Source of the DNA: an uncultured bacterium | GTDB taxonomy: Bacteria; Patescibacteriota; Minisyncoccia; Phycocordibacterales; UBA9973 | NCBI GenBank assembly: GCA_903834665.1 | Contig: CAILJY010000070.1 | Span: 1-45,132 of the forward strand | Direction of reading: 5' to 3' | DNA length: 45,132 bases | The notes under the pieces: generated by a model | Seen by the model: the letters and a program-made list of their open reading frames with translations, nothing else | What the model was told of the DNA's origin: nothing | The model's database searches: none | Made by a program: the position numbers and the translations under genes | Shown: positions 6,074 to 44,675 of the stretch, one piece after another | How the letters are laid out: each line of letters starts with the position of its first letter | Position numbering within the stretch: the stretch's first letter is position 1

Positions 6074-6180
6074 ATAATAAGGATATAAAAATTGGGAGGG
6101 TTTGGCAAATTTTTGGAAATATAAATTAGGATTTAGTCACAAATATTTTTCTGTTGAAAAATCTTGTGATCCTGACTCAG

Positions 6181-6313
6181 TCAAGAAGAGGACTAGAACC
6201 TTACAGGTTCAGTATACCTTTCATATTTTTGAAAATATTAATTTTCAAAAATGTATTCAAGGTTTTCAAGATCCTCTCCCGCAAGCCAAGTAGTTGGCTT
6301 GCTCTGGGCACCA
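6181..6313 (+). ncRNA. tRNA-Leu-partnered structured element (copy B of the tRNA-end-mimic family)
   Basis: Same module order as the 137-nt repeats at 17679-17952: tRNA-Leu-derived arms, hairpin gaac-CTTACAG-gttc, a long AT hairpin, hairpin gcaagccaa-gtag-ttggcttgc, and an end of tctgggcacca. Strand is assigned by analogy with copy A. Confidence 0.45.
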
Positions 6314-6358
6314 TATAAAAAAACTATCTTAAAGATAGTTTTTTTATATGGTGCCCAG
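6304..6358. terminator. Perfect 27+1+27 palindrome with A7/T7-flanked core (bidirectional terminator) overlapping the tRNA-Leu 3' end
   Basis: ctgggcaccatataaaaaaactatctt-a-aagatagtttttttatatggtgcccag. The right arm, 6349-6358, is the tRNA-Leu acceptor 3' strand plus CCA. Confidence 0.7.
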
Positions 6359-6433
6359 GAGAGGACTTGAACCTCCAAGGATTGCTCCACTAGTTCCTAA
6401 GACTAGCGCGTATACCAATTCCGCCACCTGGGC
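6349..6433 (-). tRNA. tRNA-Leu (anticodon TAG), class II long variable arm, CCA encoded
   Basis: The reverse complement gcccaggtggcggaattggtatacgcgctagtcTTAGgaactagtggagcaatccttggaggttcaagtcctctcctgggcacca folds as a cloverleaf with anticodon loop cuUAGga. Confidence 0.93.
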
Positions 6434-16989: not shown

Positions 16990-17505
16990 ATGAAAAATGA
17001 AGAAAAAATATTATTTAACGCGACAGTCTGTCTTCCTGTTAGGGGAGATGAGGTTCTTCTTGCTATGAAGACTAGAAAGATTGGAGCTATGTGTTGGAAT
17101 GGATATGGTGGAGGGATAGAAGAAGGGGAGAATGCTATAACAGGAGTAATTAGAGAATTACAAGAAGAATCAGGATTGATAGCTACTCCAGATGATTTAG
17201 AAAAAATGGCAATTGTTGATTTTTATAATGAAAAAAGTGATGGAAGTACATACATTTGTCGAGTCCATTTCTTTTTATTAAAAAATTGGGAAGGTGAATT
17301 AATTGAGACAGAAGAAATGATTACTCCAACATTTTTTAAAATTAATGATTTGCCTTTTGATAAAATGATGCCAGCTGATCGAGAATATTTCCCATATATT
17401 TTAAATAAAAAGAAAGTCTATGTAAAATCTTATTATTCTCCTTTTCAAAAAGAATTAAAAAGAAAAGTTGAAATAAAAGAAGTCGAAGAACTTTCTGAAA
17501 ATTAA
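16990..17505 (+). CDS. NUDIX hydrolase (MutT-like)
   Basis: 171 aa with Nudix box GGGIEEGENAITGVIRELQEESGL. Confidence 0.85.
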   Translation: MKNEEKILFNATVCLPVRGDEVLLAMKTRKIGAMCWNGYGGGIEEGENAITGVIRELQEESGLIATPDDLEKMAIVDFYNEKSDGSTYICRVHFFLLKNWEGELIETEEMITPTFFKINDLPFDKMMPADREYFPYILNKKKVYVKSYYSPFQKELKRKVEIKEVEELSEN

Positions 17506-17515
17506 AATTTTAATA

Positions 17516-17545
17516 TACACAGGACCGTCCTGTGTAGTATTTTTC
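17516..17545 (+). terminator. Intrinsic terminator of the NUDIX gene
   Basis: tacacagga-ccg-tcctgtgta followed by gtatttttc. Confidence 0.65.
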
Positions 17546-17654
17546 TAAATCACCTCAAATAGGAATGAATGATTATTTGAGGTCTATTTGAAATTATAAT
17601 TTTACATCTACGCTATAGCTGAGATGTAATTATTAATAATAAAACAAAAGGACG

Positions 17655-17959
17655 AACTGAGTTTTCGAATTCTACACGCGAGACAAGCAGTTTATTTCGT
17701 TGGGTAGGAATTTCGATCCTTACAGGATCAGTACACCTTTTCCATTCGCGAGTACGCTCATATGGAAAAGGTTTTCGAATCCTACACGAAAGCCAATAAA
17801 TTGGCTTTCTCTCGGCGAGACAAGTAGTTTATTTCGTCGGGTAGGAATTTCGATCCTTACAGGATCAGTACACCTTTTCCGTTCGTGATTACACTCACAT
17901 GGAAAAGGTCTTCGAATCCTACACGAAAGCCAATAAATTGGTTTTCTCTCGGCGAGACA
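17655..17959 (+). ncRNA. Tandem array (2.3 x 137 nt) of the tRNA-end-mimic structured element, tRNA-Tyr-specific arms
   Basis: Units 17679-17815 and 17816-17952 differ at 9 of 137 positions. Truncated copies lie at 17661-17678 and 17953-17959. Stem substitutions are compensatory or give G-U pairs only on the plus strand. Confidence 0.6.
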
Positions 17960-17960
17960 T

Positions 17961-18000
17961 ATATAAAAATAACACAGCTGAAGCTGTGTTATTTTTATAT
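17961..18000. terminator. Perfect 18-4-18 palindromic bidirectional terminator between the repeat array and tRNA-Tyr
   Basis: atataaaaataacacagc-tgaa-gctgtgttatttttatat. Confidence 0.7.
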
Positions 18001-18002
18001 TG

Positions 18003-18085
18003 TGCGCCGGGTAGGATTCGAACCTACGTAGGCCGAAGCCGTTTGATTTACAGTCAAATGCAATTGACCACTCTGCCACCGACGC
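18003..18085 (-). tRNA. tRNA-Tyr (anticodon GTA), class II variable arm, no encoded CCA
   Basis: Reverse complement gcgtcggtggcagagtggtcaattgcatttgactGTAaatcaaacggcttcggcctacgtaggttcgaatcctacccggcgca. Confidence 0.93.
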
Positions 18086-18102
18086 ATATTCTAACAGGAT
18101 TA

Positions 18103-32708: not shown

Positions 32709-32779
32709 TTGGGGATCGTCTAATGGTAGGACAGTGGCCTTTGAAGCCATTAATTGGGGTTCGAATCCCTGTCCCCAAG
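32709..32779 (+). tRNA. tRNA-Gln (anticodon TTG), U1-A72 and G73, no encoded CCA
   Basis: ttggggatcgtctaatggtaggacagtggcctTTGaagccattaattggggttcgaatccctgtccccaag folds as a cloverleaf. Confidence 0.9.
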
Positions 32780-33065
32780 CAAAATTAAGAGAAACGCAAT
32801 TTTGCGTGGGGAAGAAAATGCGATTACGCATTTTCGCCAGGGATTCGGAGACCCTGAGTATATCGCACGGAGCTTTAGCGAGTACGATACGAAGGGTGTA
32901 CAGAATCTGTAAGATTCGAAAAGTGTAATCACGGTCCCTGTCAGGGATTCGAAAGACTTTTCCTTGCCGAAGGCGGAAAAGTACCCGCGACCGTAGGGCG
33001 AGAAATTCCCTGTCCCAATCTGTAAGATTCGAAAAGTGTACTCACGGTCCATGTCCCAATTTGTA
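32780..33065 (-). ncRNA. One full, one rearranged and one partial copy of the tRNA-end-mimic element with tRNA-Gln-specific arms
   Basis: Read on the minus strand, the module order equals that of the tRNA-Tyr copies. 32904-32942 and 33017-33055 match at 37/39 positions. Hairpin gaaaatgcg-atta-cgcattttc lies at 32814-32835. Confidence 0.5.
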
Positions 33066-34091: not shown

Positions 34092-34472
34092 ATGAAAAAA
34101 TTATCTATTATATTAATTGGGATTTTATTATTTACGGGTTTGTCTTTTGTTTCTTTGCCAAATAAAGTAGAAGCTTGTGGGTATGCTTTTGGAAGCGGAT
34201 GCAATAGCTCATACTATAGACCCTCTAATTATAATTATAGACCAATATATAATTATCCAAATTATAATTACAGAAACAATAATTCTGCTTTTAATAATAA
34301 CTATTATCCATCTTCTTATAACTACAGAAGTTATGGTTCAAATTCTGCTTTTAATAATAACTATTATCCATCTTACTATAATTATGGAAGTTATAATTCA
34401 AATACTGCTTTTAATAATTATAACAATTATTATAGAGGAAATTCATATTGTTATAATTGGTGGAGATGTTAA
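34092..34472 (+). CDS. Secreted Asn/Tyr-rich repeat protein with terminal Cys pairs
   Basis: 126 aa. Signal peptide MKKLSIILIGILLFTGLSFVSLPNKVEA. 60-nt tandem repeats at 34281-34340, 34341-34400 and a partial one from 34401 encode NSAFNNNYYPS(S/Y)YNY... Cys pairs at both ends (CGYAFGSGC near the N-terminus, CYNWWRC at the C-terminus). Confidence 0.7.
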   Translation: MKKLSIILIGILLFTGLSFVSLPNKVEACGYAFGSGCNSSYYRPSNYNYRPIYNYPNYNYRNNNSAFNNNYYPSSYNYRSYGSNSAFNNNYYPSYYNYGSYNSNTAFNNYNNYYRGNSYCYNWWRC

Positions 34473-44042: not shown

Positions 44043-44208
44043 TTTGTGCCCCGTGAGGGAATCATGATTACATGTTCGGTCACTCATAATTTTCTGGAGA
44101 AAATTTGTGCGACCCCGACTCAGCTCGTCAGCCTCCGTCTTTCGATTTTTTTAAACATACATTTGGGTATGTTTAAAAATCACAGATTTTGTGCTTCGCA
44201 AAAATTTG
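44043..44208 (+). repeat. Degenerate tRNA-end-mimic element bounded by 21-nt direct repeats of the tRNA-Lys 3' end
   Basis: tttgtgccccgtgagggaatc occurs at 44043-44063 and 44205-44225. Internal hairpins lie at 44088-44105 and 44153-44174, with a T-loop-like tctttcgatt at 44138-44147. Confidence 0.45.
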
Positions 44209-44281
44209 TGCCCCGTGAGGGAATCGAACCCCCGACCATCTCCTTAAGAGGGAGCTGCTCTACCAGCTGAGCTAACAGGGC
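44209..44281 (-). tRNA. tRNA-Lys (anticodon CTT), no encoded CCA
   Basis: Reverse complement gccctgttagctcagctggtagagcagctccctCTTaaggagatggtcgggggttcgattccctcacggggca. Confidence 0.92.
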
Positions 44282-44354: not shown

Positions 44355-44675
44355 ATGAATGAAAAATTAGATAATTTTGGACTTAAGCCAGTTAATGAAC
44401 CAATTGATGAATCAATAATAGAAGTTCCTTCTTTTGAAGAGTTAGAGATTTTAAAAGAAACTGATTTTGATGAATATATTAAATGGATAGATTATATTGC
44501 AAAAACAAAAGAGGAAGAACATATAAAAGAATTAGTAGAACAAGAAAGAATAGAGAAATTAAATAAAGATAATAAAGATAATAAAGATAATAAAGATAAT
44601 AAAGAAAATGAACCAACTGGTTTTAAAGAGGATAGAGAGGATAGAAAAAAAAGAAATATGTATGGACAAAATTAA
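44355..44675 (+). CDS. Hypothetical acidic protein with (NKD)n repeat
   Basis: 106 aa. A 9-nt tandem repeat (aaagataat, about 4.5 copies) at 44565-44606 encodes NKDNKDNKDNKDNKEN. Confidence 0.45.
   Translation: MNEKLDNFGLKPVNEPIDESIIEVPSFEELEILKETDFDEYIKWIDYIAKTKEEEHIKELVEQERIEKLNKDNKDNKDNKDNKENEPTGFKEDREDRKKRNMYGQN

Follow-up and report, generated by a model that had tools for sequence, protein, structure and literature searches.

The closest described counterpart of the locus analysed here lies in Escherichia coli, where 3.1 copies of a 178-bp unit encoding rtT RNA (rttR; Rfam family RtT) stand behind the tyrT–tyrV operon. Our subject is a tandem array of 137-nt units at the 3′ end of a tRNA-Tyr gene in contig CAILJY010000070.1 of an uncultured Patescibacteriota bacterium (assembly GCA_903834665.1; the whole stretch of 45,132 nt is referred to below as the window), together with the relatives of these units in the same contig and in other genomes. 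Our results support a model in which the units probably belong to a large, uncatalogued family of Patescibacteria hairpin elements that occupy the 3′ ends of tRNA transcription units, or now and then of essential protein genes, and that fold on the strand of the gene.

The resemblance to E. coli is one of layout. The E. coli repeats are likewise tandem, directly 3′ of tRNA-Tyr and in the orientation of the tRNA. The last 19 nt of the tRNA (AATCCTTCCCCCACCACCA) recur as a direct copy at the end of every unit, and within the unit the tRNA end is also present in inverted form, as GGGGAAGGAT, which pairs with ATCCTTCCCC in a predicted 10-bp closing helix around internal hairpins. In E. coli K-12 (1286700–1287330), this inverted copy corresponds to the T-stem/acceptor 3′ strand and is found in addition to the known direct 19-nt copy, and the annotated 3′ end of rtT RNA falls exactly at the copied CCA. 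The Patescibacteria elements share the position just 3′ of a tRNA, the strand, the terminal direct copy and the inverted copy, but there is no homology of sequence or structure: our covariance model of the family (R1, described below) scored at most 5.4 bits on the E. coli locus, the RtT model had no match in the Tyr region even at E = 10, and the E. coli unit lacks the core of CUGUAAG, GGUGUAC and tandem G·A. E. coli rtT is an analogue of the elements, not a homologue. To our knowledge, the tyrT repeat occurs at a single locus in one lineage, whereas the Patescibacteria family is found at many tRNAs and some protein genes, in more than 100 species, and is polymorphic. The common layout nevertheless offers a comparative handle on an E. 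coli locus whose origin and function have long been puzzling; our literature searches on rtT yielded only a mention, in a preprint, that it is involved in processing of the tyrT transcript and may have a part in the stringent response (10.1101/2024.07.17.603846).

Several classes of mobile DNA also bear comparison. When a tyrosine integrase crosses over in the T-loop, the stretch of tRNA between that loop and the 3′ end becomes duplicated, and the elements described here share with the products of such integration a direct repeat from the crossover loop to the tRNA 3′ end, a regenerated gene end, tandem accretion and conserved-gene targets. They differ in being only ~130 nt long, in carrying an internal inverted copy of the target and a covarying core of a single-strand type, and in the lack of a tyrosine or serine integrase in or beside the element, both among the window genes and in at least 120 neighbourhoods. 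Miniature inverted-repeat transposable elements (MITEs) and the Correia, ERIC and REP/REPIN repeats are similarly small, multicopy, hairpin-forming, sometimes nested and free of open reading frames (ORFs). However, where a MITE has conserved terminal inverted repeats and a short, fixed target duplication, the terminal inverted repeats here are copies of the local flank that differ at every locus, and the duplication spans 15–35 nt. Integron attC sites and CTX-phage attP(+) are, by description, also conserved more in structure than in sequence, folded in a strand-specific manner and arranged in tandem arrays, but we see no integron integrase or dif context, and the arms of our elements appear to be target-derived. 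Neither the window nor the neighbourhoods of at least 120 elements hold an adjacent recombinase or nuclease gene of the kind that accompanies IS110 bridge RNAs or TnpB/IscB omega-RNAs; these two readings, along with ribozyme, T-box and group I/II intron readings, were set aside for want of Rfam matches or associated genes. Literature searches returned no description of this element family.

A conserved core between locus-specific arms

Tandem Repeats Finder returned a single strong array at 17678–17959 (period 137, 2.1 copies, 93% matches). Its two full units, 17679–17815 and 17816–17952, differ at exactly nine positions, including a gcg/cgc versus gtg/cac double change and three substitutions that each give a G-U pair on the plus strand. 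A first-pass annotation of the sequence had described these units and the compensatory change, which our unit alignment reproduced, and a string search, by which the module coordinates in Table 1 were set, recovered its module anatomy. Of the truncated copies that it placed at the edges of the array, the left-hand one proved to be a fragment of modules e and g without hairpin f. It had further described the palindrome between the array and tRNA-Tyr as a perfectly palindromic terminator; it does look like a bidirectional terminator, but it is not perfect through its centre, where a 4-nt loop separates the arms. Three independent assemblies with the same ParB protein agree on the 637-nt intergenic region that contains the array, either fully or with a single base of difference, so the array is not an assembly artefact. 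About 20 nt at the tRNA-Tyr 3′ end, from T-loop to discriminator, are the source of the arm sequence: arm a′ of unit 2 is a near copy of this end, and the direct copy in the units reads TCGAAATTCCTACCCGACGA against TTCGAATCCTACCCGGCGCA in the tRNA. The tRNA-Tyr gene does not encode CCA. In the 17546–17660 interval between the NUDIX gene terminator and the array lie two more hairpins, cacctcaaata...tatttgaggt and ttacatctacgctatagctgagatgtaa.

As the annotation had anticipated, no Rfam family accounts for the array. The region 17500–18100 had no credible Rfam match even at E = 10, and only tRNAs and small-subunit (SSU) rRNA passed the gathering thresholds of Rfam 15 across the window and 18 related loci. 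ARAGORN and the Rfam tRNA model called the five real tRNAs of the window and none of the units.

The units nevertheless have many relatives. Scanning one genome per prokaryotic species for CTTACAGN5GTAYACCYTT retrieved at least 120 loci, nearly all of them in Patescibacteria (Paceibacterota, Nomurabacteria, Saccharibacteria and others); family counts here and below are among the matches listed from this exact-pattern scan. The hairpin-1 stem is complementary in 112 of 122 listed matches, though the pattern does not demand it. The roughly 10 genome matches without a stem were discarded as chance, those with listed titles being non-Patescibacteria, and so were 8 matches in viral contigs, none of which has the stem. 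When 38 class-A copies were aligned, 88.8% of cells were paired, compared with 68.5% in shuffles, and the covariation score was 0.466 versus 0.107 (reached by 0 of 500 shuffles; slid controls, at most 0.131). Hairpin 1 has three variable pairs, with 15–16 double changes and none broken, which bears out the earlier observation of an invariant CTTACAG loop on a covarying stem. The covariance model R1, built from the same 38-copy alignment, found 22 copies in 80 independently collected loci, with matches in 19 of the 80. The family is real and its structure is conserved. Because its core is present in more than 100 species-level genomes and every tRNA transcription unit of the window ends in one of its elements, it forms a major and unannotated part of the intergenic DNA of Patescibacteria, and it is a strong candidate for inclusion in Rfam as a new family.

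The elements are non-coding and about 100–190 nt in size. Their core consists of hairpin 2, with a basal tandem G·A loop; the sequence GGUGUAC; and hairpin 1, effectively a 6-bp stem with a GUA tri-loop in the invariant CUGUAAG. Class-A copies, read on the tRNA strand, have the order g′, hairpin f, e′, GA(A/G)ACC, hairpin 2, GGUGUAC, hairpin 1, a′. Here, g′ is a look-alike of the acceptor 5′ strand, e′ is the complement of the T-stem 3′ strand plus T-loop, and a′ repeats the tRNA sequence between T54 and a point just beyond the discriminator. The direct repeat formed by a′ is very often exact (21/21, 26/26, 21/21, 20/20 and 21/21 nt of the neighbouring tRNA end), exact copies of 18–26 nt being present at many loci, and its length varies across loci between 15 and 35 nt. 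The proximal arm, formed by e′ and g′, which are both shorter and imperfect, is an inverted copy of the same stretch that hairpin f usually interrupts. A closing helix results from the pairing of e/g with arm a, and an element's own arms pair better than arms exchanged among elements (p = 4e-5). At the tRNA-Leu locus of the window, the proximal arm is antisense to the T-loop and T-stem 3′ strand; as the T-loop of this tRNA is non-palindromic, the idea that class-A elements arose by insertion into the T-loop of a duplicated tRNA copy was rejected on the strength of this match. Of the 54 listed class-A copies, 38 follow a tRNA on its own strand at a distance of 79–307 nt (median 126), and 19 tRNA identities are represented.

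Class-B copies have an extra third hairpin, flanked by CUUGCG and CUCAC, and further modules; they usually lie away from tRNAs, between perfect, locus-specific inverted repeats of 16–24 nt. Two other types, the core-less type 3 and type 2 (a GCCTAT-GTA-ATAGGC hairpin), use the same tRNA-derived framework. In class-B elements the CUGUAAG core is apparently nested in a type-3 module, and in one locus (L042) a type-3 module is nested within the hairpin-3 region. Upstream of tRNA-Tyr in L130, the closest relative of our locus (ParB 95% identical), the hairpin-1 loop of an older unit holds a 25-nt insertion (GAAGCTTAC[cccgtaggcgatttagatgaatcgc]AGCTTC). Five loci (L001, L004, L075, L076 and L086) carry the core ~150–220 nt upstream of an intact tRNA, within a partial duplicate of that tRNA; the break falls in the D-loop or the T-loop, or else between the D and anticodon arms. 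An apparent second copy of the flanking repeat in L039 was rejected as a chance near-match.

Gain, loss and proposed spread of the elements

For comparison across genomes, we collected 80 loci by means of ParB homologues of 59–95% identity. The tRNA-Tyr/ParB synteny is kept in most of them, and the most distant carry tRNA-Leu instead. Of these loci, 49 are orthologous tRNA-Tyr loci with at least 300 nt to inspect; some have a terminator only, whereas others hold one to three elements of several types. In L134, a new element with its own terminator stands between the tRNA and an older terminator that is still joined to an exact copy of the tRNA end, and every newly added element in related loci brings its own terminator hairpin (L134, and L139 when compared with the empty site in L143). 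The junction in L130 that is homologous to ours suggests local amplification of a composite unit at tRNA-Tyr. Judged from these aligned loci, the elements are gained and lost at orthologous sites, and they stack, nest and amplify in tandem; modules also seem to insert into one another's loops.

The relation between cores and arms points in the same direction. Two loci from different genomes (L063 and L073) share 98% identity over a core running from TCGAAG-CTTACAG to GCTTTTCGA, yet have unrelated arms, terminators and hairpin f. In four others (L001, L004, L012 and L039), hairpin 2 is 100% identical, whereas the hairpin-1 stems differ yet remain self-complementary. Nor is the core confined to tRNAs: it directly follows the stop codon of rplK (encoding L11) in four genomes (L033, L077, L087 and L111) and lies after ftsZ in one (L091). 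The rplK and ftsZ sites have a direct repeat and an inverted copy of the last 10–35 nt of the gene, and the ORF is preserved; in L091, a perfect 35-nt direct repeat ends at the first base of the stop codon, and the remaining stop bases are supplied by the element. The neighbours of at least 120 elements have no ORF or protein family in common, and no transposase, integrase or reverse transcriptase was found near these elements or among the window genes. The arms match whichever gene is local, the gene upstream is left intact, and no enzyme gene accompanies the elements. Empty and filled orthologues, near-identical cores with unrelated arms and the rplK and ftsZ sites together argue that the family behaves as non-autonomous mobile or duplicative DNA. 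Of the possibilities raised in the first pass, a miniature mobile element at tRNA 3′ ends thus fits best, given the empty and filled sites, the stacking and nesting, and the identical cores with different arms; the comparisons support broadening its apparent target range from tRNA to gene 3′ ends.

How such elements might spread can be outlined. The core would be clamped by a closing helix of local sequence, made up of a distal direct repeat of the last 18–35 nt of the gene and a proximal inverted copy, and would be copied into gene 3′ ends with duplication of the target. From direct repeats that are perfect but variable in length, inverted copies that are imperfect, and rewritten arms on an unchanged core, we infer that the arms are made anew from the target at each insertion and are not inherited. 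A trans-acting activity to which the conserved loops serve as recognition sites could carry out the copying. Alternatively, hairpins could promote template switching during replication, which would yield a direct–inverted–direct arrangement; the arrangement observed is direct–inverted–direct, with two hairpin centres, the terminator and the core. Arms rewritten for each host gene around a near-constant core imply a copying mechanism outside the mobile-element classes compared above. Local amplification of a single unit may have given rise to the tandem array at tRNA-Tyr. RNAs produced by read-through from the tRNA promoter would have an acceptor/T-stem-like helix and a tRNA-like 3′ end and, by analogy with E. 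coli rtT RNA, these might be trimmed by the tRNA 3′-processing machinery.

A bolder form of this proposal, which is tentative and which we consider rather unlikely, is that the core is a new kind of target-templated mobile element, or else that the transcripts form a set of acceptor/T-arm mimics, one for each tRNA. In the first case, the gene 3′ end would be copied both directly and in inverted form at each insertion, and the flank would act as a base-pairing 'address' or clamp. In the second, the transcripts would be freed by tRNA-processing enzymes, and their targets would be tRNA-binding enzymes, toxins or phage factors. On either view, the origin of the E. coli rtT repeats would be accounted for as well.

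Strand of the fold and rival explanations

The first-pass annotation took the plus strand of the Tyr array to be the folded RNA, and the family as a whole speaks against this. Hairpin 2 contains a 2 × 2 tandem G·A internal loop (5′-GA/5′-GA), flanked by pairs, on the tRNA-sense strand of 59 of the 112 listed copies and on the opposite strand of none, where shuffles give 10.9 and 1.8, respectively; all four strong copies in the window have it, as read from their hairpin-2 sequences. The arms of class-B copies favour the same strand (28 versus 8, p = 1.5e-4), and a T-stem 3′ strand that runs directly into the acceptor 3′ strand, as it does in a tRNA, is seen solely on the tRNA strand. On the basis of the tandem G·A, the class-B arms and this contiguity, we take the tRNA-sense strand, with moderate confidence, to be the one that folds, either as RNA or as single-stranded DNA. 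One further measure was abandoned as strand evidence: counts of G·U versus A·C favoured this strand by 40 to 13 in wide alignment windows, but by only 7 to 4 for class A in tight ones, and the signal is dominated by a few conserved class-B positions (43 versus 44 in a noisy arm alignment).

Several observations weigh against our proposal of mobile hairpin elements folded on the gene strand. The strand preference of class-A arms is weak (33 versus 21, p = 0.075). The Tyr units fold better on the plus strand (−49.8 and −49.3 versus −46.3 and −41.8 kcal/mol), the acceptor-like helix and the three recent substitutions at this locus favour that strand too, and a 6.4 kcal/mol folding-energy advantage of the tRNA strand vanished under base-composition control and was dropped as evidence. 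A promoter scan found no sigma-70-like promoter within the array on either strand; the tRNA-Tyr promoter is the sole promoter-like site, so any array RNA would need to arise by read-through, and a strong hairpin lies between tRNA-Tyr and the array. The case for mobility is drawn from comparative patterns. Recombination between direct repeats could be behind some of the empty sites, and an identical hairpin 2 across species could reflect strong purifying selection and not recent transfer. In addition, the inverted arm is imperfect even beside a perfect direct repeat, and a single copying event is insufficient to produce it.

The rival that fares best, though we judge it unlikely, is that the units are scars or miniature satellites of integrase-mediated integration, the core being an attP arm for an integrase encoded elsewhere, much as in cis-mobilisable elements. 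The direct repeat from T54 to just past the tRNA end is indeed like that of T-loop att sites, the targets are 3′ ends of conserved genes whose ends are restored, and tandem accretion is seen. However, no integrase lies in the window or near at least 120 elements, which measure only about 110–190 nt, and covarying stems, invariant loops and a strand-specific G·A motif set the core apart from arm sites that bind protein as duplexes. Nor do att sites contain an inverted copy of the target, and the repeat length ranges from 15 to 35 nt.

Vertical inheritance is a second and quite unlikely alternative, in which the elements are functional tRNA-like RNA genes, one per tRNA, with arms that track the tRNA by selection and not through mobility; they could serve as acceptor/T-arm minihelix decoys or as processing or regulatory modules for tRNA-binding enzymes or toxins. 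Such genes would fit the order on the tRNA strand (acceptor 5′ strand, hairpin, T-stem 5′ strand, expanded loop, then contiguous T-stem and acceptor 3′ strands), the strongly conserved structure and the occupation of four of four tRNA units in the window. They would not fit the absence of the element from more than half of the orthologous tRNA-Tyr loci, the different cargo types held by one framework, or the cores found after protein genes and between locus-specific perfect inverted repeats of 16–24 nt, and the Rfam tRNA model does not score the units.

Least likely, in our view, is the reading preferred in the first pass, a plus-strand non-coding RNA transcribed towards tRNA-Tyr, ended by the palindromic terminator and either pairing with the tRNA 3′ end as its antisense or serving as its decoy. 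In its favour, both Tyr units do fold 3.5–7.5 kcal/mol better on the plus strand, the a:g helix keeps its U·G pairs solely on that strand, where the three recent substitutions also give G·U, a terminator-like palindrome lies 3′ of the array, and many loci have an arm a exactly antisense to the tRNA end. Against it, 59 of the 112 listed copies have the tandem G·A on the other strand and none has it on this one, where those positions would be tandem pyrimidine–pyrimidine mismatches; class-B arms favour the other strand; the units have tRNA topology on the tRNA strand; the promoter scan found no promoter-like site upstream on the plus strand; and the same core follows rplK and ftsZ, which offer no tRNA as a pairing partner and speak against tRNA specificity. 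The three G-U substitutions were correctly read in the first pass, but three of three is not significant and does not carry the strand assignment drawn from them.

Elements and repeats across the window

The family of gene-strand hairpin elements that we favour is well represented in the window (Table 1). The motif CTTACAGN5GTAYAC occurs four times, against 0.78 expected, each time just past a tRNA 3′ end and on the opposite strand. R1 gave strong matches of 72–86 bits at 17832–17929(−), 17695–17792(−), 32831–32937(+) and 6176–6283(−), plus one weak variant. These matches, with the exact 19-nt repeat at the Lys locus, confirm that the units recur beside tRNA-Leu, tRNA-Gln and tRNA-Lys with arms of the local tRNA, as noticed in the first pass. 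ARAGORN found five tRNAs in the window (Tyr, Leu, Cys, Gln and Lys), and an element terminates all four of their transcription units. Patescibacteria genomes are tiny, yet every tRNA transcription unit of the window ends in such an element. The window genes include no recombinase, and all have housekeeping functions.

Table 1. Positions of the tRNA-associated elements, their modules and neighbouring signals in the window
Feature	Position	Strand	Basis or detail
tRNA-Tyr(GTA)	18002–18085	minus	ARAGORN; Rfam tRNA, 62.3 bits
Promoter-like TTGAAA-16-TATAAT of tRNA-Tyr	18130–18103	minus	promoter scan, 11/12 matches
Palindrome between tRNA-Tyr and array	17961–18000	none	A/T-flanked; 18-nt arms, 4-nt loop
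Unit 2, type-1 element	17829–17960	minus	R1, 85.7 bits, E = 2e-19
Unit 2, g′	17955–17947	minus	
Unit 2, hairpin f	17946–17925	minus	
Unit 2, e′	17922–17910	minus	
Unit 2, hairpin 2	17909–17872	minus	tandem G·A
Unit 2, GGUGUAC	17874–17868	minus	
Unit 2, hairpin 1	17866–17852	minus	CUGUAAG
Unit 2, a′	17853–17834	minus	
Unit 1, type-1 element	17692–17828	minus	R1, 84.9 bits; 9 differences from unit 2
Unit 1, g′	17818–17810	minus	
Unit 1, hairpin f	17809–17788	minus	
Unit 1, e′	17785–17773	minus	
Unit 1, hairpin 2	17772–17735	minus	
Unit 1, hairpin 1	17729–17715	minus	
Unit 1, a′	17716–17697	minus	
Partial third unit (ttttcgaattctacacgcgagaca)	17662–17685	minus	e+g fragment without hairpin f
Type-1 element 3′ of tRNA-Cys/tRNA-Leu pair	6183–6348	minus	R1, 72.2 bits
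Leu element, a′	6183–6199	minus	
Leu element, hairpin 1	6196–6210	minus	
Leu element, hairpin 2	6216–6263	minus	
Leu element, e′	6264–6279	minus	
Leu element, hairpin f	6281–6302	minus	
Leu element, g′	6303–6313	minus	
Leu element, palindromic terminator	6314–6348	minus	
Type-3 (core-less) module remnant abutting Leu element	6137–6182	minus	similarity to Lys-locus module and related loci
tRNA-Gln	32709–32780		elements downstream span 32807–33059, plus strand
Gln locus, type-1b element	32807–32942	plus	R1, 72.4 bits
Gln locus, variant element	32943–33018	plus	R1, 21.6 bits; hairpin CGCGACC-GUA-GGGCGAG
Gln locus, partial copy	33019–33059	plus	
Type-3 relative 3′ of tRNA-Lys (44208–44281)	44045–44206	minus	sequence
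Lys locus, direct repeat of tRNA-Lys end	44045–44063 and 44207–44225		exact, 19 nt
Lys locus, mini-hairpin			within the repeats
Lys locus, type-3 module	44080–44139		within the repeats
Lys locus, terminator hairpin	44146–44179		within the repeats

At the Leu locus, g′ (tctgggcacca) is an exact inverted copy of the tRNA-Leu end including CCA, which this gene encodes. At 6303–6360, the tRNA-Leu 3′ end and arm g of the element together make a perfect long palindrome about the terminator (ctgggcacca tataaaaaaactatctt ... aagatagtttttttata tggtgcccag). Partial tRNA copies and long palindromes of this family may confuse tRNA annotation, the detection of integration sites and assembly. The type-3 module of the Lys locus, which also lies beside the Leu element, is found in many related loci.

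Two coding repeats complete the inventory. At 34261–34418, a 60-nt tandem repeat (2.3–2.7 copies, 81–89% matches) lies within ORF 34092–34472, which had no Pfam match. At 44562–44609, within ORF 44355–44675, the 9-nt repeat AATAAAGAT occurs 5.3 times (97% matches), ~370 nt upstream of the start of the 16S rRNA gene (44980).

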